NCBI GenBank assembly: GCA_963664325.2
Contig: CAXXDQ010000007.1
Span: 896,001-960,000, forward strand
Reading direction: 5' to 3'
DNA length: 64,000 nucleotides
Source of the DNA: Desulfomonilia bacterium
GTDB taxonomy: Bacteria > Desulfobacterota > Desulfomonilia > UBA1062
Numbering within the stretch: the first letter of the stretch is position 1; every line of letters begins with the position of its first letter. A program made the translations under genes and the position numbers. Positions 20,628 through 33,987 of this stretch are shown here, in pieces. The notes beneath the pieces are model-generated. The model saw nothing but the letters and a program-made list of their open reading frames with translations, did not search any database and was not told the DNA's origin.

Positions 20628-21569
20628 CTATTTTCTGCCGTGCTCCCTGTTCCAGATATCTGTCAGTTTCCTGGCCTCGGCAATCTGGGCGGCCGTCATC
20701 TGTCTGGCAAGGGCATCCCTGTTTTTTGCTGCGCTGCTGTTCCCGTTTGCAGCGCACAGGCTGAACCATTTATAGGCCTGGACATTATCCTGCGGCACAC
20801 CCTGCCCGTTGCTGTACAAGAAGGCAAGGGTGCACTGAGCCCTGGCCACTCCCTGTTCGGCCGCCTTCGTGTACCATTTAACGGCCTCTGCATAATTCTG
20901 CGGTACCCCCTGCCCCAGGTCATACATGAAAGCGAGATCGAGCTGGGCTTCGGCATCTCCGTGTTCAGCCGCTTTTGTATACCATTTCACGGCCTCTTCA
21001 TAACTCTGCGTAACGCCCTGTCCGTTTTCGTACATAAGCCCGAGGCTCAGCTGAGCAGTGACATTCCCCTGTTCCGCCGCTCTTGTGTAAAGTTTCAGGG
21101 CCTCCGCATAATTCTGCTTCACGCCCTTCCCGCTTGCATAGAGGGCGGCAAGATGATTCTGGGCCGGGACATGCCCTTGAGCAGCCGCTTTTGAAAACCA
21201 CTTGAAGGCCTCTTCGTAATTCCGGGGTACCCCGTCTCCCGTTTCATACTTGAGAGCGAGATAATACTGCGCTGATGAAAGACCCTGTTCAGCGGCCTTT
21301 ATAAACCACACAACCGCATCATCGGAACCTGACGGCGCCACTTTTCCCGTATCATACATGAGTGCGACATAGAACTGGGCCCTGGCATCCCCCTTCTCTG
21401 CCAGAGGCTTTGCCATCTTGAAAGCACTGGCGTAATCCTGCTTTTCATAAGCCTCCAGATATGAGGAATATTTCACGGGTGTTTTTGATTTTCCGGTCTT
21501 GCTCTCAGGACAAGCAACCCCCGGGAGCACAAAAAATGCTACCAATAAAATACAAACCGCCCTTTTCAT
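20628..21569 (-). CDS. Sel1-repeat protein
   Basis: Six repeats of AQ..L..MY..G.GV.QNY.EA.KWY.KAAEQG; signal/lipoprotein-like N-terminus. Confidence 0.9.
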   Translation of the reverse strand: MKRAVCILLVAFFVLPGVACPESKTGKSKTPVKYSSYLEAYEKQDYASAFKMAKPLAEKGDARAQFYVALMYDTGKVAPSGSDDAVVWFIKAAEQGLSSAQYYLALKYETGDGVPRNYEEAFKWFSKAAAQGHVPAQNHLAALYASGKGVKQNYAEALKLYTRAAEQGNVTAQLSLGLMYENGQGVTQSYEEAVKWYTKAAEHGDAEAQLDLAFMYDLGQGVPQNYAEAVKWYTKAAEQGVARAQCTLAFLYSNGQGVPQDNVQAYKWFSLCAANGNSSAAKNRDALARQMTAAQIAEARKLTDIWNREHGRK

Positions 21570-26382: not shown

Positions 26383-26503
26383 GCAGGGCGTCAGAACGAT
26401 GCAGACCTAGGAGCGACGAAGCGAAAATGCGAGGTGTACTTTTACGTACTCCGCAGCGTTTCCGCGAGGAGCGACAACGGTATGCGAAGTTATCACGCCC
26501 TGC
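26383..26503. mobile_element. MITE-like 121-bp element at the tssG stop codon
   Basis: Terminal inverted repeats GCAGGGCGTCAGAAC / GTTATCACGCCCTGC (13/15 match), internal GTAC-N6-GTAC hairpin and duplicated AGGAGCGAC. Confidence 0.55.
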
Positions 26504-27510
26504 TACATTTTCTCGCGGATGATGATGCACTTATCATCCGCGGCCCCACCTTCAGCCTGCACCATCCACGTCGTCTGTCCTATATGATACCCCATACCCA
26601 GGCCCAAGGGCGGGACCTCTTCCTTTTTGAGGATAATCTTCAAATCATATTCATACTCGATGCCTGCGGCATAGCGCACCATCGCCTTTACGGGTTCGGT
26701 CATGTCGCCGTCCGGCATGAACCTCAGAAACTCATCATAGCCCATGGGCCCGATGTTCACCCTGAATCCGGCCTGCATGTCCGTCACCTCGGAACCCACG
26801 ACCGTATCGACACCGAGCGCCGAGTTCGCAAGCCCCAGGCTGGTCATGTCCTCCGGGGTCAGCTTTATGCTGCGCTCCCGGAACTGGTCCAGGCTGACCC
26901 CAGTGCCCGTCATGCCGGATATCACGGCTTCCAGGGAAGCGGCAGTCGGCATGGGCCTTGAAAGCTGGCCGGTATGGAATAGAAACCTTCCGGCAGGCAG
27001 GCCCGACATCTCGATTAGCCATTTGGAGCCCAGCCCTGTCAGACTCAAGAGCATAGCGCTCAGCCTGCCGCCATGCTCTTCGGCATAGTTCTCAGCAAAC
27101 CGGCCCCTCTTCCAGGCCAGGTAAAAGAGCGCGATCAGCCTGTGGTGGAAGATATCGAGAAAGGAGGTGAGGCTGAAGTCCTTCTCGCGGTTCCGGTTGA
27201 GCGCCAGCTCGTTGTACCAGTAAGGCAGGACGCCCGAAGGCCCGAGAGCGCCCATGAACGCAACCGACATCACAGGCGGACCGTCAGCGGTTTTTTCGAG
27301 CGAAACTATTTCCGCCTGGGGAAATGAAAAGCCCGGCTTGACCGAGAACCTGACCGGCTCTCTGGCAGGCTCGAGCGTAACGCCCAGGTGTCCCTCATCA
27401 GGACTGAGCCCCTCCAGCAGACCTACGGCCTTGAAAAACGAAAAGGACTGCGGCTCTGCGAAAAGCCTTTCGGTTACAGTAGTATTCTGCTTCCGTTTCT
27501 TGGCGGCCAT
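26503..27510 (-). CDS. tssG: T6SS baseplate subunit TssG
   Basis: FSFFKAV.LLE, MGALGPSGVLP, FLDIFHHRLI.LFYLAW; overlaps the tssF end. Confidence 0.9.
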   Translation of the reverse strand: MAAKKRKQNTTVTERLFAEPQSFSFFKAVGLLEGLSPDEGHLGVTLEPAREPVRFSVKPGFSFPQAEIVSLEKTADGPPVMSVAFMGALGPSGVLPYWYNELALNRNREKDFSLTSFLDIFHHRLIALFYLAWKRGRFAENYAEEHGGRLSAMLLSLTGLGSKWLIEMSGLPAGRFLFHTGQLSRPMPTAASLEAVISGMTGTGVSLDQFRERSIKLTPEDMTSLGLANSALGVDTVVGSEVTDMQAGFRVNIGPMGYDEFLRFMPDGDMTEPVKAMVRYAAGIEYEYDLKIILKKEEVPPLGLGMGYHIGQTTWMVQAEGGAADDKCIIIREKM

Positions 27511-29267
27511 TTTTTCAAAGGCTCCTTTTTCTGCACCGTCCTCGCCTCGAGCTGGACGAACGAGTTTATGGAAACGTACTGCGACAGGAAGGCCTCAAGG
27601 ATGGAGGCGAACAGATACAGCCCCGCGCCGACGAACTTGTCCTCGTCAAAGGTGATGCTCGTCCGTATTCCGCGGATGAACGAGACCCCTATCCTTTTCG
27701 TGACATGATCGGTCGAGACTCTGGTAATGCCCGATATCTGCTGGCCGGTCGACGGCGAGTTGTCGAAGTCGTAGAGTTTGAGTATCTCCTTCAGCGCCTC
27801 TTCGCCCCCGCCCACGAGCGAGAGATAGTTGAGCGAGAGGTGCGAGATGAGCTTCCACTGGAGACTCCCGCCGAGTGACGGCCTCCTGCACGGGGTCGGC
27901 TTGATGAGACTCGTGATCTTCGAAAAGGGCCCGGCGGTGTCAAGGTCGAAATCGCCCTGGGAATCGCCGAACGAGAGCCTTGCGGGCAGGTCCCTGTTCG
28001 TGCATGTCACATGCAGGGTCACCGTTTCAACGCCGGGGTCGGCCGGGGTGAGAGAGGCGTCGGTGAAAGAGAGGTATACTTCGGTGCCCGAATCCCCCTT
28101 TTTGCCTGAAGGAAGCCTCTTTATATTCCAGAAGACCTTCCGCCCTTCCTCCTCGTCGCCCGGGTGCCTGAGCGAGAATATGGGCCTGTAATCCACCACC
28201 TTGCCGCCCGAAAGGCTTGATACCACGCTGTCCACGGTAAACACCTCGGTCGTGTTCTGGCGCCTGATGTCGGGTATGATCCTGTAGTCGCTCAGCCTGT
28301 GCTCGATCCTTACGGGTTCGGCCACCCTTTTGAATATGTTTACCGCGGGCGTTACATTCAGGCAGAAGGTCTCGGCGTTCATCACGAGGTTCTGCTTGGC
28401 CGGTCTGTCAAGGTATATCCATATGTCAAGGGTCTCCGTGAGCTCATAATCCCTGAGCCTGCCGAGCCCGGTTATGTCGAAGAACAGGAACTTTTCCGGG
28501 AAACAGAAATATTCGAAAAGGAGCAGGTAGCCGGGGAATGAACGCGACGAATAGGGCAGCAGGTTTTCTTCCGCGGTAAATCCGACGGGCTTTATGTCGC
28601 CGGGCGAAAGCCGGATATTAACACTCTGCCCCTGTTTGGTCCTGGCCTCGAGCTCGATATGGCAGACGTTGTTCATGAGCAGTTCGTAAAGGTGAAAGAC
28701 ATGCTGGTGCTGCGCATTCAGGAAAAACCTGAGGCTCTCCCATCCGAGCTGCGACACCGGCAGGCTGTTGGATGTATTAAGCTGAATCTGTATGGCCTGC
28801 TGGGCGTTCCTGATGCTGAGCCTGGGGGTTTTGAGCGAGGCGGATGCGACCTCGACCGGCCATGCGGTAACCGGATATGACGTCGAAAACTGGCAGGCGG
28901 TCCCGCTGAGAGGCCTGGAATAAAGCGTCGTGCCTTTTTCAATATTGAAGCCCGAGGCCGGAATGTTCTGTCTGATCGGCTCGAACCTGACAATAGTCAT
29001 CGCGGGGATCGGGTTTATGTAATGGGGATATATGATGCTTAAAAGGGATTCGGTTATCTCGGGGAATTCATCGTCGATCTTCTTGTGGACCCGGGCCGAG
29101 AGAAACGCAAACGCCTCGATCAGTCGCTCGGTGTGGGGATCTTCACACTTGTCGGGCTCAAGCTGGAGCCGCCCAGCGATCTTGGGATATTTGCGGGCGA
29201 ATTCGGCCCCCATCTGGCGTATAAACGTCAGTTCCTTTTCATAGTAACTTAAAAGTTCATCGTCCAT
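27474..29267 (-). CDS. tssF: T6SS baseplate subunit TssF
   Basis: LLSYYEKEL.FIR, DPHTERLIEAFAFL, EYFCFPEKFLF, WKLISHLSLNYLSL, W.PR.G. Confidence 0.95.
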   Translation of the reverse strand: MDDELLSYYEKELTFIRQMGAEFARKYPKIAGRLQLEPDKCEDPHTERLIEAFAFLSARVHKKIDDEFPEITESLLSIIYPHYINPIPAMTIVRFEPIRQNIPASGFNIEKGTTLYSRPLSGTACQFSTSYPVTAWPVEVASASLKTPRLSIRNAQQAIQIQLNTSNSLPVSQLGWESLRFFLNAQHQHVFHLYELLMNNVCHIELEARTKQGQSVNIRLSPGDIKPVGFTAEENLLPYSSRSFPGYLLLFEYFCFPEKFLFFDITGLGRLRDYELTETLDIWIYLDRPAKQNLVMNAETFCLNVTPAVNIFKRVAEPVRIEHRLSDYRIIPDIRRQNTTEVFTVDSVVSSLSGGKVVDYRPIFSLRHPGDEEEGRKVFWNIKRLPSGKKGDSGTEVYLSFTDASLTPADPGVETVTLHVTCTNRDLPARLSFGDSQGDFDLDTAGPFSKITSLIKPTPCRRPSLGGSLQWKLISHLSLNYLSLVGGGEEALKEILKLYDFDNSPSTGQQISGITRVSTDHVTKRIGVSFIRGIRTSITFDEDKFVGAGLYLFASILEAFLSQYVSINSFVQLEARTVQKKEPLKKWPPRNGSRILL

Positions 29268-29322
29268 AATGACTAGTGGTGAGTGATGAGTGGTGAGTGG
29301 TGAGCAAGAATTTATCTAACAT
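29257..29322 (-). other. 21-codon micro-ORF (MLDKFLLTTHHSSLTTSHYGR) overlapping the tssF start
   Basis: GGGAGG RBS and ATG at 29322, reads through the heptamer array, stop overlaps the first 11 nt of tssF. Confidence 0.45.
29274..29304 (+). repeat. Heptamer array (AGTGGTG)x4, left arm of an inverted repeat
   Basis: T AGTGGTG AGTGATG AGTGGTG AGTGGTG AG. Confidence 0.9.
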
Positions 29323-29371
29323 AATTCCTCCCTGGTCGGATGAACCTTTATTACCTGTTTACAGGCCTTTT

Positions 29372-29758
29372 TTAACTTTCAAGTCTTTCAATAAGTTTAT
29401 ATAACATTTTCTGTAATTCGTCTATTTGAGCAGAAATAGTATCAAAATCATCCTGTTTCAAATAATTTAGTTCAAAAGCCAGAATTGTATGTGTATCCAG
29501 TTCGGCAAGAGAACCTCTTGCAATCGATAAAAACCTGACAAATTCTTTTGTACTGTTTCGCGCTTGTCCTTCAGCAATATTCGATGGTATTGATGCCGAG
29601 GCCCTGCGAGTTTGATTAGCCAATCCATATTCTTCTTTTTTAGGATAATTCTCAGTTATTCTGTATATAATTTTTGCAAGCTCAATCCCTTTTTTCCAAA
29701 CAATAAGCGACTTATAACTTTTTACAGCACAATGTTCGTTGTTCTCATTATTATTCAT
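29372..29758 (-). CDS. Four-helix-bundle protein (23S rRNA IVS protein-like / TIGR02436-type)
   Basis: SYKSLIVWKK, YP..E.YGL..Q.RRASASIPSNIAEG..R, F.RFL.IARGSLAEL.T; AT-rich relative to its flanks. Confidence 0.9.
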   Translation of the reverse strand: MNNNENNEHCAVKSYKSLIVWKKGIELAKIIYRITENYPKKEEYGLANQTRRASASIPSNIAEGQARNSTKEFVRFLSIARGSLAELDTHTILAFELNYLKQDDFDTISAQIDELQKMLYKLIERLES

Positions 29759-29767
29759 GAGCTTTTT

Positions 29768-29878
29768 CTCACCACTCACCACTGTCCACTCACCACTATC
29801 CCTTAACTGTATCTCTTTCCTCACCACACACCACTGTCCACTCACCACTGTCCACTCACCACTATCCCTTGACTGTAT
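29768..29878 (-). repeat. Two heptamer arrays (4 and 6 units), each preceded by a copy of the tssE 3' end
   Basis: Minus strand ATACAGT(C/T)AAGGGAT-(AGTGGTG/AGTGGAC)n-AG at 29820-29878 and 29768-29812. Confidence 0.9.
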
Positions 29879-30326
29879 ATTCTCCCCTGTTGACATCAAA
29901 AAAAGTGTCGAATGAAACAGGTTCTGATTCCGGCTCGACCACCAGCATGGCGTTGATCCTGAACCTGAGTGAATTTATCCTTGAATCGCCTTCAACAACG
30001 ACGCTGACATTTCTGAGCCTGGGCTCGAACCTGGCGATCACCTTTTCAATATCCTGCCTGATCGACTTCTTCACCGAGATGTTGCCGGGGTTCTGGGACG
30101 TAAAGTCGCTCACGCCGTAGGTGAACAGGGATTCGGCAACCTCCCTGAATCCTTCCGGCGGGTCGAATATGTGCCGTCTTGTGTTGAGAAGGTTTTCCAG
30201 GTCGCGGACGACCTGCGCCTTGATCTGCCTTATGTCCATATACCGGTCCTGCGCCGCTTCCTGCGACAGGTCAGGATCGTTGTCTATGAGGCGATCAAGG
30301 ATGGAAGGTATAATGTTTTCGTTCAT
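29862..30326 (-). CDS. tssE: T6SS baseplate subunit TssE (gp25-like)
   Basis: PSILDRLID, RDLENLLNTR, YGV.DF, I.RFEPRL..V.V. Confidence 0.9.
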   Translation of the reverse strand: MNENIIPSILDRLIDNDPDLSQEAAQDRYMDIRQIKAQVVRDLENLLNTRRHIFDPPEGFREVAESLFTYGVSDFTSQNPGNISVKKSIRQDIEKVIARFEPRLRNVSVVVEGDSRINSLRFRINAMLVVEPESEPVSFDTFFDVNRGEYTVKG

Positions 30327-30328
30327 TC

Positions 30329-31261
30329 TTAGCCCTGCCAGTCTTCTCTGAGTATCGCATAAAGGACATCGTCCTCGTACCGGCCCCACTTGACAAAGGC
30401 CTGCCTTAAATATCCCTCCTGTTTCATGCCCAGCTTCTGCATGACCTTTCCTGATGCGGGATTGCGCGCAAGGTGCTTCGCCTGTATGCGGTTCAGATTC
30501 ATTTCCTCAAACCCGTATTTTATAAGGGCCGAGGACGCCTCGGTGCAATAGCCCTGTCCCCAGAAATCCTTTCCGATCCAGTAGCCGAGCTCCCCCGAAT
30601 TGCTCGCTTTATCTATATCCAGTATCGAGACGCAGCCTGCAAGCCCGCCGTCTTCCTTGAGCGTGACGGCAAGGGCCAGCATTTTGTTGTTAATGAATTC
30701 ATCCTTATGTGTATTTATCCATGCCTCCGCCGCACCGTCGGGATACGGATGCGGTATTGCCGCTGTCGTATCAGCTACGGCGAAGTCGCCTGCAAGCCTC
30801 TGCAGATCGGACGAGTCAGACAGGTTGAAGGGCCTCAGGACCAGCCTGCCGGTTTCAAGCACGGGCATCTTTCTTTCAGCCTGAACCGGGTGCGGCGTAT
30901 CTTCACAATCCTGATAATTCTCCGGCACAAAACGCGGGGTGCATATGGCCAGGAATATCAGGTCCCTTTCCCCGGTGCTGGTTATCCGCTGTTTTACGCC
31001 GGGATGTATTACCACAACATCGCCTTTTGTTACCGGGGCCGCGCTTTCATCACCGACCTCGGCCAGCCCCTCACCTTCAAGAATAATATAACGTTCGCAG
31101 GTGCCGAGAAGCTTGTGGAACCTTGTTGTAATACCGGGTTCAACCCTTACCCTGGCAATCGAAGCTTCGCCATCGGCAGACGTGTTCCACCATTCGGTAA
31201 CAAAGCACCCTTCATCAATAAAATATTCCCCGGGATTGTTTCTATGTACAGGCATAATCAA
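30329..31261 (-). CDS. Cupin + RimJ/RimL-type GNAT acetyltransferase fusion
   Basis: Cupin (ERYIILEGEG...GDVVVI...FLAICTPRF), then LETGRLVLRPF, ELGYWIG..FWGQGY, NPASGKVMQKLGM. Confidence 0.85.
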   Translation of the reverse strand: MIMPVHRNNPGEYFIDEGCFVTEWWNTSADGEASIARVRVEPGITTRFHKLLGTCERYIILEGEGLAEVGDESAAPVTKGDVVVIHPGVKQRITSTGERDLIFLAICTPRFVPENYQDCEDTPHPVQAERKMPVLETGRLVLRPFNLSDSSDLQRLAGDFAVADTTAAIPHPYPDGAAEAWINTHKDEFINNKMLALAVTLKEDGGLAGCVSILDIDKASNSGELGYWIGKDFWGQGYCTEASSALIKYGFEEMNLNRIQAKHLARNPASGKVMQKLGMKQEGYLRQAFVKWGRYEDDVLYAILREDWQG

Positions 31262-31290
31262 TATCGGTGATAATTTTTTCTTTTCTTTTC

Positions 31291-31320
31291 CTCACCACTC
31301 ACCACTTATAACTCATTACC
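31291..31320 (-). repeat. Third, degenerate AGTGGTG heptamer array
   Basis: Minus strand GGTAATG AGTTATA AGTGGTG AGTGGTG AG. Confidence 0.7.
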
Positions 31321-31388: not shown

Positions 31389-31886
31389 TTACGAACCTTT
31401 GTTGGCCACCAGGTCCCAGTTGGCAGCGACATTGCCCTTGGGTTTGCCTGTCTTGTGGTCGGTCTCGGTATACGTCCACTCCATCTTGCCGTAGTTGAAG
31501 GAAACCTCTTCAATGGGCAGCGTATCTCCCCCCGCCGAAGAGCCCCCCGGCCTCACCGAGCTCACGATGACATCGCTCATCTTGTATTCCATGTATTTAA
31601 CCTTGTCTCCGCCGGCCCTGCAGAGTTCAACCTTGACTTCCTTGATATGGGTGCCGTTGCAGCAGAAAAGATTGAGCTTCGGTGAAGCCTTGTCCAGGGC
31701 CTTGACAATCGAAAACGGGCTGTGCTCGCACCGTTCCGCAGTCCTGCCTCCGCCGCTGCTCACCGAACCGGATGCCGGCTGCGAAACGCCATGGCTGTAG
31801 GACAGTATCTCTATCCAGTCCTTGTGCTTGTCATCCGTGCTCTCTCCCGGTATCCCTTCTATTTTCAAAAAAGCGTCAAACGCCAT
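31389..31886 (-). CDS. hcp: T6SS tube protein Hcp (TssD)
   Basis: MAFDAFLKIEGIPGESTDDKHKDWIE, KALDKASPKL, EEVSFNYGK.EW.Y, NWDL..NK. Confidence 0.95.
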   Translation of the reverse strand: MAFDAFLKIEGIPGESTDDKHKDWIEILSYSHGVSQPASGSVSSGGGRTAERCEHSPFSIVKALDKASPKLNLFCCNGTHIKEVKVELCRAGGDKVKYMEYKMSDVIVSSVRPGGSSAGGDTLPIEEVSFNYGKMEWTYTETDHKTGKPKGNVAANWDLVANKGS

Positions 31887-31964: not shown

Positions 31965-33455
31965 CTATCCCTTTGCCGGAGGCGGAAGCTCTGCAACAAG
32001 CCTCAGCGACACCGACAGCTCGTCGAGCTGGAAGTGCGGCTTCAGGAAGGCCACCGCCCTGTATGCGCCGGGTTTGCCGGGTATCTCCGCCACGTCTATC
32101 CTGGCTTCCCTTAAGGGCATCTTGGCCTTGGCATCCTGACCGGCATTGTCGTCCAGGAGCACATAGCTGCTAATCCAGCGGTTCAGGAAGTCCTCGGCGT
32201 CCTTTCGTGTCATGAAGCTTCCGATCTTATCCCGCATAATGGATTTCAGGTAGTGAGCAAACCTGGAAACGGCCATAATGTACTGGAGCTGCGAGGAAAG
32301 CTTGGCATTGGCGTTCGCCGCATCCGTGTCATAGGCCTTGGCCTTGTTCGCCGTCTGGGTGCTGAAAAATGCCGCATAGTCCGTTCCCTTGCAGTGCACC
32401 AGCGGGACAAACCCGAGATCCGCAAGCTCCTTTTCACGCCTGTCAGTTATTGCAACCTCGGTCGGGCACTTGAGCGCCACGTCGCCGTCATCGGTCTTGA
32501 AGGTGTGCACGGGCAGCCCCTGTACAAGCCCGCCTCCCTCGACGCCCCTTATGGCCGCCGTCCAGTGGTATTTGGCAAAGGCGTCGGTCAGACGGGAGCC
32601 GAGCGCATAAGCCGCGTTGCCCCAGAGGTATTTGCCGTGGTCCGTACCGGTTACATCCTCTTCGAAGTCAAAAGATTCCACCGGCACATTGTCTTTTCCG
32701 TACGGCAGCCTCATAAGCACATGGGGCAGCGCCAGGGCGACATACCTGGAATCCTCCGATTCCCTCAACGATTTCCACTTTGCATATTCGACACTCTGGA
32801 AGGTCTTGGCCAGGTCCCTCGGAATCCCGATATCGGTAAAGGAGTCAAGGTTGAACATGCTGGGGGATGCAGCCGAGATAAACGGCGCATGCGCCGCTGC
32901 CGCGACCTGCGACACCTTTTCCAGGAGCGCCATGTCCTGAGGGTGGTTGCTGAACTCATAATCCCCTATCAAAGCGCCGTATGAGGCGCCGCCGAACATG
33001 CCGAACTCCTCTTCGTATATTTTTTTGAAGAGTGTTGACTGGTCGAATTCGCTCGCCTTTTCCATATCTTTCAGGAGGTCGTTCTTGGAAACGTTCATCA
33101 CGCGGAGCTTCAGGCTTTCCCCCGTTTCGCTCTTGTTGACAAGATAGAAGAGCCCTCTCCACGACCCTTCAAGCTTCTGGAAGTCCTGATGATGCATTAC
33201 TTCGTTGAGCTGATCCGATATCAGCTTGTCTATCTGTGCGATGCGGGCGTTTATCATGGCCTCGGTATCCTTTGATACCGTGATCACGCCTTCCATTATC
33301 TGGCTTACAAACTCTGAAAGGATATCCTTCGCCCTCGCCTTCTGCACATCGTCGCGTGCCATTCTTCCTTCATCGATAATCTTATCGAGAAGGCTCAATT
33401 CCTCTTTCTCGACTACTTTTGCCTCTTTCTGGGTCAATTCCTGATTCTCAGGCAT
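31965..33455 (-). CDS. tssC: T6SS sheath large subunit TssC (VipB)
   Basis: FQKLEGSWRGL, AAAAHAPFIS, YLWGNAAY, RFAHYLK, PHFQLDEL; start MPENQ after GGGAGG. Confidence 0.95.
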   Translation of the reverse strand: MPENQELTQKEAKVVEKEELSLLDKIIDEGRMARDDVQKARAKDILSEFVSQIMEGVITVSKDTEAMINARIAQIDKLISDQLNEVMHHQDFQKLEGSWRGLFYLVNKSETGESLKLRVMNVSKNDLLKDMEKASEFDQSTLFKKIYEEEFGMFGGASYGALIGDYEFSNHPQDMALLEKVSQVAAAAHAPFISAASPSMFNLDSFTDIGIPRDLAKTFQSVEYAKWKSLRESEDSRYVALALPHVLMRLPYGKDNVPVESFDFEEDVTGTDHGKYLWGNAAYALGSRLTDAFAKYHWTAAIRGVEGGGLVQGLPVHTFKTDDGDVALKCPTEVAITDRREKELADLGFVPLVHCKGTDYAAFFSTQTANKAKAYDTDAANANAKLSSQLQYIMAVSRFAHYLKSIMRDKIGSFMTRKDAEDFLNRWISSYVLLDDNAGQDAKAKMPLREARIDVAEIPGKPGAYRAVAFLKPHFQLDELSVSLRLVAELPPPAKG

Positions 33456-33477
33456 ACTCGCCACCCCCTCCCTATTC

Positions 33478-33987
33478 TCACTTCTTCTTTGTGCCTGCAT
33501 CGGCAGACAGCTTCTGCAGGGCATCGGTCGACGAAATAACATCCTGGAGAAGTTCATTGAGGTTGTCATTTCCATCCAGTTTGTTTAACAGCTCGGAGAG
33601 CTTCTTCCTCGTTTCAACAAGCTTTTTGAGCGGGTCGATCTGCTCTGTCACGCGTTCCGGGGAAAAATCGTCAAGGGACTTGAATTTAAGCTCGACCGCT
33701 ATCTTAGAATCATCGCCCGTAAGCTTGTTGTCCACCTTGTATGCAAGCCTCGGCTTCATGCCTTCGAGCACCTTGTTGAAATTGTCACGGTCAATCTCGG
33801 TGAATTTCCTGTCCTTCAACTTGGGCAGCGGTTCCTCCGGCTTGCCGGAAAAATCCCCCAGCACCCCGACAACGAACGGAATCTCCTTCATCTCTATGGA
33901 GTCGCCAATCTCGACATCATAGGTAATCTGGACCCTTGGAGCCCTCACTCTGTCGAGTGTATGTTGCAGACTCTCCTTCTTCGGCAT
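33478..33987 (-). CDS. tssB: T6SS sheath small subunit TssB (VipA)
   Basis: RVRAPRVQITYDVE, EIPFVVGVLGDFSG, DDFSPE. Confidence 0.95.
   Translation of the reverse strand: MPKKESLQHTLDRVRAPRVQITYDVEIGDSIEMKEIPFVVGVLGDFSGKPEEPLPKLKDRKFTEIDRDNFNKVLEGMKPRLAYKVDNKLTGDDSKIAVELKFKSLDDFSPERVTEQIDPLKKLVETRKKLSELLNKLDGNDNLNELLQDVISSTDALQKLSADAGTKKK

Follow-up and report, generated by a model that had tools for sequence, protein, structure and literature searches.

The tssE and tssF genes of a T6SS locus are separated by a gene for a 128-aa four-helix-bundle protein of family PF05635, and this gene is enclosed in inverted arrays of 7-nt repeats. On balance, the unit is probably a promoterless, transposase-free cassette of the kind known from 23S rRNA intervening sequences (IVS), lodged here between the cistrons of an mRNA. 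Cassettes of this kind are widespread and barely described, and they are not specific to T6SS.

A PF05635 gene caged in heptamer arrays between tssE and tssF

A preliminary description of this DNA had reported an AT-rich gene, caged in heptamer arrays, exactly between tssE and tssF. The observation is real and is confirmed here. Gene coordinates and Pfam matches place tssE, the PF05635 gene and tssF in consecutive order, the whole set on the minus strand, and the GC content of the middle gene (0.328) lies below that of both tssE (0.519) and tssF (0.556). The relevant features, numbered along the 64-kb window (the whole stretch of DNA analysed), are as follows.

27474-29267, minus strand: tssF (Pfam, E 1.4e-214)
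29257-29332, minus strand: Shine-Dalgarno (SD) site and short reading frame (sequence)
29274-29304, minus strand: 3' arm, CTCACCA-type heptamers, 4.3 units, inverted complement of the 5' arms
29372-29758, minus strand: 128-aa four-helix-bundle gene (PF05635, E 3e-41)
29768-29798, minus strand: proximal 5' arm, partner of the 3' arm (sequence, fold)
29768-29812, minus strand: second duplication copy, including the proximal 5' arm (repeat search, fold)
29820-29864, minus strand: distal 5' array, AGTGGTG-type heptamers, about 6 units (repeat search)
29862-30389, minus strand: tssE, gp25-like baseplate gene (Pfam GPW_gp25, E 6.6e-19)
31290-31308, minus strand: solo AGTGGTG array, 2.3 units, between hcp and a cupin-GNAT gene

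Tandem Repeats Finder identified period-7 arrays at 29275-29304 (4.3 copies, 91%), 29768-29797 (4.3 copies) and 29820-29867 (6.9 copies), the last recovering an additional array of about six units previously placed at 29820-29864. The 31-bp inverted repeat described around the gene was reproduced directly from the sequence, 29274-29304 being identical to the reverse complement of 29768-29798 at 28 of 31 positions; an inverted-repeat search recovered the arms as well (I2, 33 nt, 85%; I5, 27 nt, 89%). With up to two mismatches allowed, the window contains 12 occurrences of AGTGGTGAGTGGTG where 0.23 would be expected; none of 100 shuffles reached 12. Eleven of these occurrences fall in a 590-nt stretch (29275-29863) and the remaining one is at 31293-31306; the solo array at 31290-31308 belongs to the AGTGGTG repeat family and has no partner arm.

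The arrays fit closely between the neighbouring genes. As originally noted, the upstream array begins at the tssE stop, the TAG at 29864-29862 forming its opening triplet; on the other side, where a distance of 6-7 nt had been given, we measured 6 nt between the end of the 3' arm and the tssF ATG (29267). This space holds no SD sequence belonging to tssF, and no promoter-like site was found in 29100-30100. The distal array belongs to the native copy of a 66-nt tandem duplication: 41-nt copies at 29838-29878 and 29772-29812 are 98% alike, and the final 17 nt of tssE and the array are each present twice, with a pseudo-copy of the tssE end at 29796-29812. The final unit of the proximal 5' arm bears an SD-like GGTGAG.

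The PF05635 protein

The encoded protein matches PF05635 with 140.4 bits (cut-off 33.8) over profile positions 1-105 of 106. Its AlphaFold2 model (pLDDT 93.8) consists of four helices; the closest solved structure is XCC0516 (2gsc; TMq 0.86, rmsd 0.8, sequence E 8.2e-30), followed by Avd (4dwl) and 8ube, each with TMq 0.74. The initial assignment to the 23S rRNA intervening-sequence protein family, with a relationship to Avd, thus holds. The homologue structures 2gsc and 2rld contain five chains each, and we would guess that a pentamer binds single-stranded heptamer arrays. Among Pfam families the only hits were PF05635 and a sub-cut-off match to bAvd, with no match to a nuclease or recombinase family, and a PADLOC defence search gave no match for either PF05635 protein of the genome. 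As judged from dN/dS values of 0.19 and 0.13 in comparisons with two other species of the genus (G002 and G003, respectively), the cassette protein is under purifying selection.

Predicted folding of the cassette transcript

In the predicted fold (z -4.06), two runs, of 13 and 16 pairs, join 29798-29768 to 29304-29274. The same 29 arm pairs appear in the minimum-energy and centroid folds, so that the long helix originally proposed, with the gene looped out, is predicted in both. The only SD-like site of the PF05635 gene, GGUGAG, lies 9 nt ahead of its AUG and falls inside this predicted helix, in line with the suggestion that pairing would hide it. A stem enclosing the ORF is likewise predicted for the cassette of G003, and the arms of a second cassette in the present genome (G000) also pair in the predicted fold.

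No support was obtained for selection acting on the RNA helix. Mismatches in the arms comprise 37 G·U and 52 A·C (p 0.14), thus no wobble excess, in a test of limited power (89 informative mismatches) in which repeat registers are possibly misaligned. The mismatch spectrum is strand-symmetric, as expected of DNA repeats, and uncompensated changes pile up between species in a gene-less hairpin. Since there is no G·U excess and the hairpin changes are uncompensated, the helix shows no visible sign of selection as RNA; the arms behave like inverted repeats at the DNA level.

A short reading frame ends on the tssF start

Within the cassette, a Shine-Dalgarno sequence, GGGAGGA (29332-29326), precedes a frame of 21 codons (29322-29257) that begins in the loop and traverses the 3' arm, and whose TGA overlaps the tssF start. 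An SD-led short frame is found in G000, G002 and G003, the loop sequence of G003 being different; since the G000 and G002 cassettes are recently related, these represent two independent instances only. The C-rich 3' arm is open in every frame, and any frame crossing it either fuses to tssF or stops no more than about 20 nt from the tssF start. As a general cassette feature the short frame was rejected, being present in 1 of 55 other cassettes.

Cassettes are exchanged at the tssE-tssF junction

The junction is filled by a cassette in all four genomes of the genus (G000-G003), and these cassettes fall into three lineages. That of G001 has octamer arms and a truncated PF05635 gene, 33% identical. 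Outside the genus the situation is different: in the sister-genus genome G013 the junction is empty (TAG, 10 nt, ATG), and it is empty in G014 as judged by coordinates. In a wider set of 77 TssF loci that have both genes, the gap is at most 60 nt in 48, 61-241 nt in 22 and at least 272 nt in seven (inspection of the gaps above 60 nt covered three of these seven, those other than L015, L062, L067 and L081); a PF05635 gene occupies the tssE-tssF junction in only two of the 77. The gene is therefore not fixed in orthologous T6SS loci, sister genera being without the cassette, and the comparison shows it to have been acquired in this genus.

Divergence at fourfold sites differs between the cassette and its surroundings. 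Between G000 and G002, 4 of 39 such sites differ in the cassette gene as compared to 131 of 249 in tssF (Fisher p 4e-7), an excess of similarity to which the GC3 of the G000 tssF (0.74 vs 0.64) possibly contributes in part. Within the genus, however, no tssF distance falls below 0.327, three times the 0.103 of the cassette in this pair; the G000 and G002 cassettes are recent relatives. The order is reversed between G002 and G003, with differences at 16 of 27 sites in the cassette and 99 of 261 in tssF. Because cassette divergence conflicts with tssF divergence, these site counts show cassettes to have been exchanged in place, independently of the flanking genes.

We also considered whether the G001 junction cassette could be a recent within-genome copy; it has no DNA-level match to the other PF05635 loci tested, save for a distant Desulfosarcina locus (71%).

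A second cassette and gene-less arrays in the same genome

The genome contains two PF05635 genes in total, both bracketed by inverted arrays. In the second cassette, (CAGGAGA)x8 is followed by the gene and then by inverted CTGTCTCC units. Arrays of the two arm units number 64 genome-wide, many of them inverted pairs 40-130 nt apart with no gene between, and the two units dominate the period-7 arrays of the genome, with 18 arrays each. The scattering on which the preliminary reading might have foundered is thus real, yet the arrays are also linked to four-helix-bundle genes; with this link, and with a gene that is not fixed in orthologous T6SS loci, that reading is not refuted. An octamer hairpin family of about 19 arrays is present too, and the genome has no PF05635 gene of that type.

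These elements vary in presence between congeners. G000 and G001 carry the second cassette; the corresponding sites in G002 and G003 are cleanly empty. One gene-less hairpin found in three genomes of the genus is missing from G002. Between G000 and G001 the second cassette differs at 18 of 30 fourfold sites, near the tssF value of 0.506, and so gives no sign of recent exchange; the figure for its downstream gene (2 of 16) comes from a gapped slice and is unreliable. Comparison of filled and empty sites, whose flanks are about 20% diverged, revealed no clear target-site duplication, and no excision product was seen in comparisons of contigs and of filled and empty sites. One sample provided contigs from three runs, and none of these had a variant, an insertion or a deletion over the locus. 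The single candidate excision joint linking 29304 to 29766, with 89 other letters between, proved to be another hairpin of the genome. The 23S gene (C2:155306-158308) has no period-7 array; a gene for RNase III is present.

Heptamer arms recur around the PF05635 family

The question of whether four-helix-bundle genes generally carry inverted arms, raised with the first description, was taken beyond the two genes of this genome to a sample of 80 PF05635 loci from many phyla, 73 of them analysable. Inverted flanks exceeding all 20 shuffles were found in 55 of the 73, compared to 1 of 74 control tssF genes; 18 of the sampled relatives lack detectable inverted arms. The period is 7 in 45 relatives and 8 in two, and the median arm is 29 nt long (about 4 units). 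Among the 55 armed relatives the upstream neighbour is on the same strand in 30, on the opposite strand in two and uncallable in 23; the corresponding downstream numbers are 24, three and 28. Median gaps in this set are 7 nt from a same-strand upstream stop and 11 nt to the downstream start. Altogether, these flank comparisons show that the heptamer-armed architecture recurs around the PF05635 family, and arms abutting same-strand stops and starts bear out the notion of a transposase-free operon-junction element.

In two unrelated genomes the cassette unit is dispersed, with 15 and 129 matches against none for the reversed pattern. A scan of species-representative genomes matched at least 595 stretches, and 591 of the matches listed encode a PF05635 relative. 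Phage records gave no match at E 1e-5. Of 72,556 plasmid records 32 match, mostly cyanobacterial; one copy, on a plasmid of Nostoc PCC 7120, has C/T-rich arrays on either side and no inverted arms, and we draw no connection to the heptamer repeats of cyanobacteria.

Discussion

The reading that we favour, that of an IVS-like cassette between mRNA cistrons, would work as follows. The cassette would be transcribed by read-through from the T6SS promoter, and the resulting RNA is predicted to fold so that its proximal 5' arm pairs with the 3' arm over about 29 bp, masking the SD-like site of the gene. By analogy with the Coxiella IVS, RNase III would probably cut this stem; the cassette RNA would be released and the tssE and tssF messages separated. 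With the insertion, tssF would have lost close coupling to tssE, and it has no SD of its own. Translation of tssF might instead be carried out by ribosomes that load at the short frame with its SD, unwind the 3' arm and terminate on the tssF AUG. The arms, or their gene-less copies, are the likely sites of cassette swapping.

The analogy between the cassette and an IVS, drawn in the preliminary description, turns out to be close. In Coxiella, the IVS in 23S helix 45 has a 28-bp stem in which RNase III cuts, and three tandem GACAGAT heptamers, variable in number, directly precede the S23p ORF (PMC4990558). ORF-bearing 23S IVSs (Coxiella burnetii, Leptospira) share with our cassette a protein of the same family encoded in the loop, the absence of a transposase, terminal inverted repeats giving a stem of about 28-29 bp with an SD-like site in it, and tandem heptamers directly upstream of the ORF. 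The tssE-tssF cassette differs in lying between protein-coding cistrons rather than in rRNA, and in being exchanged between species at one junction. Furthermore, purifying selection acts on its protein, while the Coxiella ORF is reported to be decaying, and RNase III cleavage, demonstrated there, would apply here by extension (PMC4990558). In the literature searched, heptamer repeats are tied to an S23p ORF only in the Coxiella paper, and only within rRNA (PMC4990558). New here are the genus-wide junction cassettes in three lineages, their exchange in place and the short frame leading onto the tssF start.

Resemblances to mobile elements extend further. Integron cassettes are promoterless single genes with attC hairpins, served by an integrase and an attI site. 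Like them, the PF05635 cassette is a promoterless single gene with imperfect inverted repeats, has the orientation of a promoter upstream of it and can be exchanged at a fixed site; unlike them, it has no integrase or attI, carries arms of tandem units on both sides and inserts at ordinary intercistronic junctions. MITEs are small elements of intergenic DNA bounded by terminal inverted repeats; they exist with and without a gene, and their presence varies among relatives. The cassette shares all these traits, but no clear target-site duplication is recognised for it. We know of no transposase related to PF05635 cassettes.

REP/REPIN sequences and their RAYTs offer a different model. A RAYT is encoded by a single Y1/HUH transposase gene flanked by inverted short repeats, and the repeat is dispersed as gene-less doublets. 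By extension, the four-helix-bundle protein could spread or maintain its own heptamer hairpins as DNA, with the cassette as master copy and any RNA effects as by-products. The shared layout of a gene flanked by inverted repeat copies that also occur as gene-less inverted doublets agrees with this, as do the flanking of both PF05635 genes by the dominant period-7 units of the genome, the dispersal of the cassette unit in the two unrelated genomes, the gain and loss of hairpins and cassettes between congeners, the purifying selection on the protein and the strand-symmetric mismatches. The pentameric homologues (2gsc, 2rld) and the median arm of about 4 units would suit it too. Nevertheless, we regard this as possible but unlikely: the gene encodes a four-helix bundle instead of a Y1/HUH transposase, with no nuclease or recombinase match; the arms are tandem 7-nt arrays, not one palindrome; no clear target duplication came to light; the octamer hairpins of G000 have no gene; and if gene and arms simply descended together, their units would match anyway.

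A broader scheme would unite these elements in a self-recognising, transposase-free mobile cassette system. A pentamer would bind its own unit in single-stranded arrays, each subunit taking about one unit on arms of some 4-5; the arrays would be the exchange sites, cassettes replacing each other at fixed stop-to-start operon junctions; the scattered gene-less hairpins would be non-autonomous offspring, and rRNA intervening sequences a special case that landed in rRNA. Taken jointly, these propositions make a tentative and rather improbable whole.

A third reading is that the host recruited the cassette for regulation, the stem, the SD masking and the protein acting as a switch for the tssE:tssF ratio or for baseplate timing. 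A junction filled throughout the genus, an SD hidden by the predicted stem, a short frame terminating on the tssF start and two 5' arrays competing for one 3' arm could be so explained. Against it, tssE and tssF are directly coupled in sister genera and in the 48 wider loci with short gaps, the three lineages at the junction, one with a truncated gene, speak of turnover rather than conservation, and the G·U signature is absent. Since the sister genera are empty and cassettes of the same build sit at unrelated junctions, a T6SS-tied regulatory role is unsupported, and we consider recruitment of this sort distinctly doubtful.

Two further proposals are already contradicted. Avd forms pentamers that bind nucleic acid and reverse transcriptase, and the gene could be the Avd subunit of a degenerate diversity-generating retroelement (DGR). 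The homologous four-helix-bundle fold (4dwl, 8ube; PMC10053308) and a weak bAvd Pfam match (26.2 bits) point that way, but this score is below the cut-off of 40, no reverse transcriptase (PF00078) occurs anywhere in the genome, which is 95.6% complete, no template/variable repeat pair was noted and the gene's neighbours are tssE and tssF; a DGR remnant is thus highly improbable, barring a reverse transcriptase in the 4% left unassembled. Equally far-fetched is a chance neighbourhood, in which the gene merely lies between two generic intergenic simple repeats, as the 64 arrays across the genome might suggest, given the crowding of AGTGGTGAGTGGTG matches into 590 nt, the bracketing of both PF05635 genes and the contrast between relatives and control genes.

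PF05635 is a very large family, and three findings make it tractable: its usual packaging is a hairpin of 7-nt tandem units between cistrons, gene-less hairpin families are built of the same units, and sister species have swapped cassettes at one junction. The cassette model makes predictions that can be tested at the bench: the protein should have a defined ligand, RNA or DNA, RNase III should cut the mRNA, and the short frame should re-couple the downstream gene. For annotation, it matters that PF05635 inserts interrupt operons, bring in stop codons and can provide essential neighbours with translation starts.

The T6SS operon contains an IVS-type cassette

A preliminary description had placed a four-helix-bundle gene, caged by inverted AGTGGTG arrays, between tssE and tssF. 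Gene order, arrays and a match to PF05635, the 23S rRNA intervening-sequence (IVS) protein family (S23p), bear this out. The window corresponds to positions 896001-960000 of contig C7 in this genome.

Genes of the T6SS region (window coordinates)
31965-33575, minus strand: tssC, named by position and sequence alone
31389-31886, minus strand: hcp, T6SS gene
30329-31261, minus strand: cupin-GNAT gene, in the T6SS operon
29862-30389, minus strand: tssE, T6SS gene
29372-29758, minus strand: 128-aa gene, PF05635 match
27474-29267, minus strand: tssF, T6SS gene
26503-27510, minus strand: tssG, named by position and sequence alone

On the minus strand, a 6-unit AGTGGTG-type array (29864-29820) begins with the tssE stop codon, TAG. 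A second 5' array (29798-29768) lies 9 nt ahead of the cassette gene ATG; downstream of its stop codon come 67 nt of loop, the inverted array (29304-29274) and, 6 nt further on, the tssF ATG. The arm complementarity originally reported, 28/31, is correct. Across the window the repeat pattern has 12 matches, where 0.23 would be expected. A 66-nt tandem duplication (41-nt copies, 98% alike) takes in the distal array together with the final 17 nt of tssE. This duplication is common to the congeneric genome G002; the cassette of a further congener, G003, has a single array.

Two side features were noted. The cupin-GNAT fusion gene (30329-31308 including its array), flanked by hcp and tssE inside the operon, has ahead of it a solo AGTGGTG array (31290-31308) that lacks an inverted counterpart; the fusion ORF and the annotated start of tssE overlap by 60 nt. 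Positions 20849-21131 hold a 108-nt tandem repeat (2.6 copies, 73% matches).

The 128-aa product matches the PF05635 profile with an E value of 3e-41 and the sequence of the solved pentamer 2gsc with 8.2e-30. Its predicted fold is a four-helix bundle (pLDDT 93.8), closest in structure to 2gsc and 2rld, followed by Avd, the accessory protein of diversity-generating retroelements; a review (PMC10053308) describes PF05635 as homologous to Avd. The dN/dS ratios of 0.19 and 0.13 in two species comparisons indicate that the protein is under purifying selection. It gave no defence-system match. A diversity-generating retroelement was ruled out, no reverse transcriptase being found in the genome (95.6% complete) and the bAvd score lying below its cut-off. 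Nor is the cassette, strictly speaking, an rRNA intervening sequence, since it is not in a 23S gene. The cassette is an IVS-type, heptamer-armed element in an mRNA operon.

Predicted transcript and pairing of the arms

The cassette has no promoter-like site and is far more AT-rich than the neighbouring genes; given also the co-orientation of such cassettes with their neighbours, its RNA probably comes from read-through transcription. In the predicted transcript fold, the proximal 5' arm and the 3' arm pair (13 + 16 pairs) in both minimum-energy and centroid structures, with a z of -4.06. The G003 cassette shows the same pairing (z -2.2); in a second cassette of the genome, built of CAGGAGA units, the arms pair too, with an overall z of only -0.61.

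Within the literature searched, heptamers were linked to a PF05635 ORF only in a Coxiella paper (PMC4990558). The homologous element described there carries GACAGAT heptamers ahead of the S23p ORF; its stem, 28 bp long, is cut by RNase III (PMC4990558). Both elements combine a stem with heptamers before an ORF; whereas the cut is known in Coxiella, here it may reasonably be inferred from the predicted arm helix, the RNase III gene of this genome and the cut homologue. The arm helix in the transcript would then be cleaved by RNase III. RNA-level consequences are plausible. Two observations speak against selection on an RNA helix. Mismatched columns of 55 arm pairs (n=255) included 37 G·U and 52 A·C, and a gene-less hairpin has accumulated uncompensated changes from species to species. 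Lacking a G·U excess or compensation, the arm complementarity resembles what is seen in DNA inverted repeats.

Cassette turnover within the genus

Among 77 TssF loci having both tssE and tssF, the intervening gap is ≤60 nt in 48, 61-241 nt in 22 and ≥272 nt in 7; a PF05635 gene occurs there in only 2 of the 77, both from the cassette's own genus. The junction is empty in sister genera (TAG, 10 nt, ATG in G013; judged by coordinates in G014) and filled in all four genomes of the genus. Arms are of the AGTGGTG type in this genome (G000), G002 and G003; in the fourth, G001, AGCTGATA-type octamer arms surround a PF05635 gene only 33% identical and truncated after profile position 58.

Species pairs were compared at fourfold-degenerate sites. 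Between G000 and G002, tssF differs at 131/249 sites and the cassette gene at 4/39 (Fisher p 4e-7); between G002 and G003 the values are 99/261 and 16/27 (p 0.04). For G001-G002, tssF distance is 0.327 and the cassette gene is not comparable. By synonymous distance G000 is the genus outlier in tssF, whereas G000 and G002 form the closest pair in the cassette gene. Sliding G000-G002 identity ranges from 0.87 to 1.00 across the cassette, non-coding loop included, from 0.78 to 0.88 in tssF and from 0.72 to 0.88 in tssE once the gapped start of that gene is set aside. These comparisons indicate that the cassette's history differs from that of its flanking genes. The divergence mismatch, with the varied junction contents, indicates that cassettes entered this junction or were exchanged there at least twice after the genus's species split; on this evidence, the cassette was acquired within the genus and then swapped in place. 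As a separate observation, tssF GC3 is 0.74 in G000 (27474-29267) vs 0.64-0.65 in the three congeners (loci L003, L004, L165).

Elsewhere, G000 and G001 carry the CAGGAGA cassette; G002 and G003 lack it, and their empty sites consist of a stop codon, then 19-24 nt holding the next gene's SD. One gene-less hairpin is found in three genomes and missing from G002, where its flanks abut.

A short frame ahead of tssF

No SD lies between the 3' arm and the tssF ATG. The loop carries GGGAGGA upstream of an ATG at 29322, from which a 21-codon frame crosses the 3' arm, its TGA overlapping the tssF start. The arrangement recurs in G002 and, despite a different loop sequence, in G003; among 55 other cassettes, just 1 has a frame that is led by an SD and crosses the 3' arm. 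Ribosomes from the short frame would re-couple tssF translation, which we infer to be a local adaptation with two independent instances.

Recurrence of the cassette

Only one other PF05635 gene exists in the genome (contig C2:127461-127844); (CAGGAGA)x8 lies before it and the inverted units after it. The two arm units form 64 arrays genome-wide (≥14 nt, ≤1 mismatch), many being gene-less inverted pairs 40-130 nt apart, and each accounts for 18 of the period-7 tandem repeats, among which they dominate. A third family, with the 8-nt unit AAGCTGWT (~19 arrays), is associated with no PF05635 gene in this genome. Its hairpins (e.g. C4:118953-119040, C4:901801-901900, C7:386963-387054, C8:345272-345360) have similar loops and adjoin a further conserved ~100-nt repeat (motif ...tacgcctcgttcctcg...), which suggests a larger composite element. 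In G003, related sequence replaces a CAGGAGA hairpin.

PF05635 matches occur in 12 of 21 genomes of the bacterial family, with 0 to 24 per genome. The 24 in G010, spread over many contigs, are mostly short fragments (profile positions about 25-58), suggesting that truncated copies arose in a burst. In a Desulfosarcina MAG (L080:5810-6650), another PF05635 gene directly follows tssG, with octamer arrays, the inverted downstream one exceeding 300 nt. One four-helix-bundle protein accession is annotated on both Nostoc PCC 7120 plasmids alpha and gamma (L210, L211); the gamma copy adjoins an ISL3 transposase and has C/T-rich arrays on both sides without inverted arms.

From the best 80 of 591 confirmed relatives, which span many phyla, 73 were analysed (5 had frames <300 nt, 2 short flanks). 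Upstream and downstream flanks were complementary beyond all 20 shuffles in 55/73, against 1/74 for tssF genes taken as control; period 7 was found in 45/73 and period 8 in 2/73. In 43 of 50 periodic arms, the sense strand of the upstream arm is rich in G. Median gaps are 7 nt from upstream stop to 5' arm and 11 nt from 3' arm to downstream start. Neighbours lie on the same rather than the opposite strand in 30 vs 2 cases upstream and 24 vs 3 downstream (the remainder could not be called), a bias indicating that cassettes sit within transcription units. Two unrelated cassettes likewise have their arm units scattered through the genomes that carry them (15 and 129 matches vs 0 for the reversed pattern). 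In conclusion, the heptamer-armed PF05635 cassette is a recurrent build and no T6SS-specific feature.
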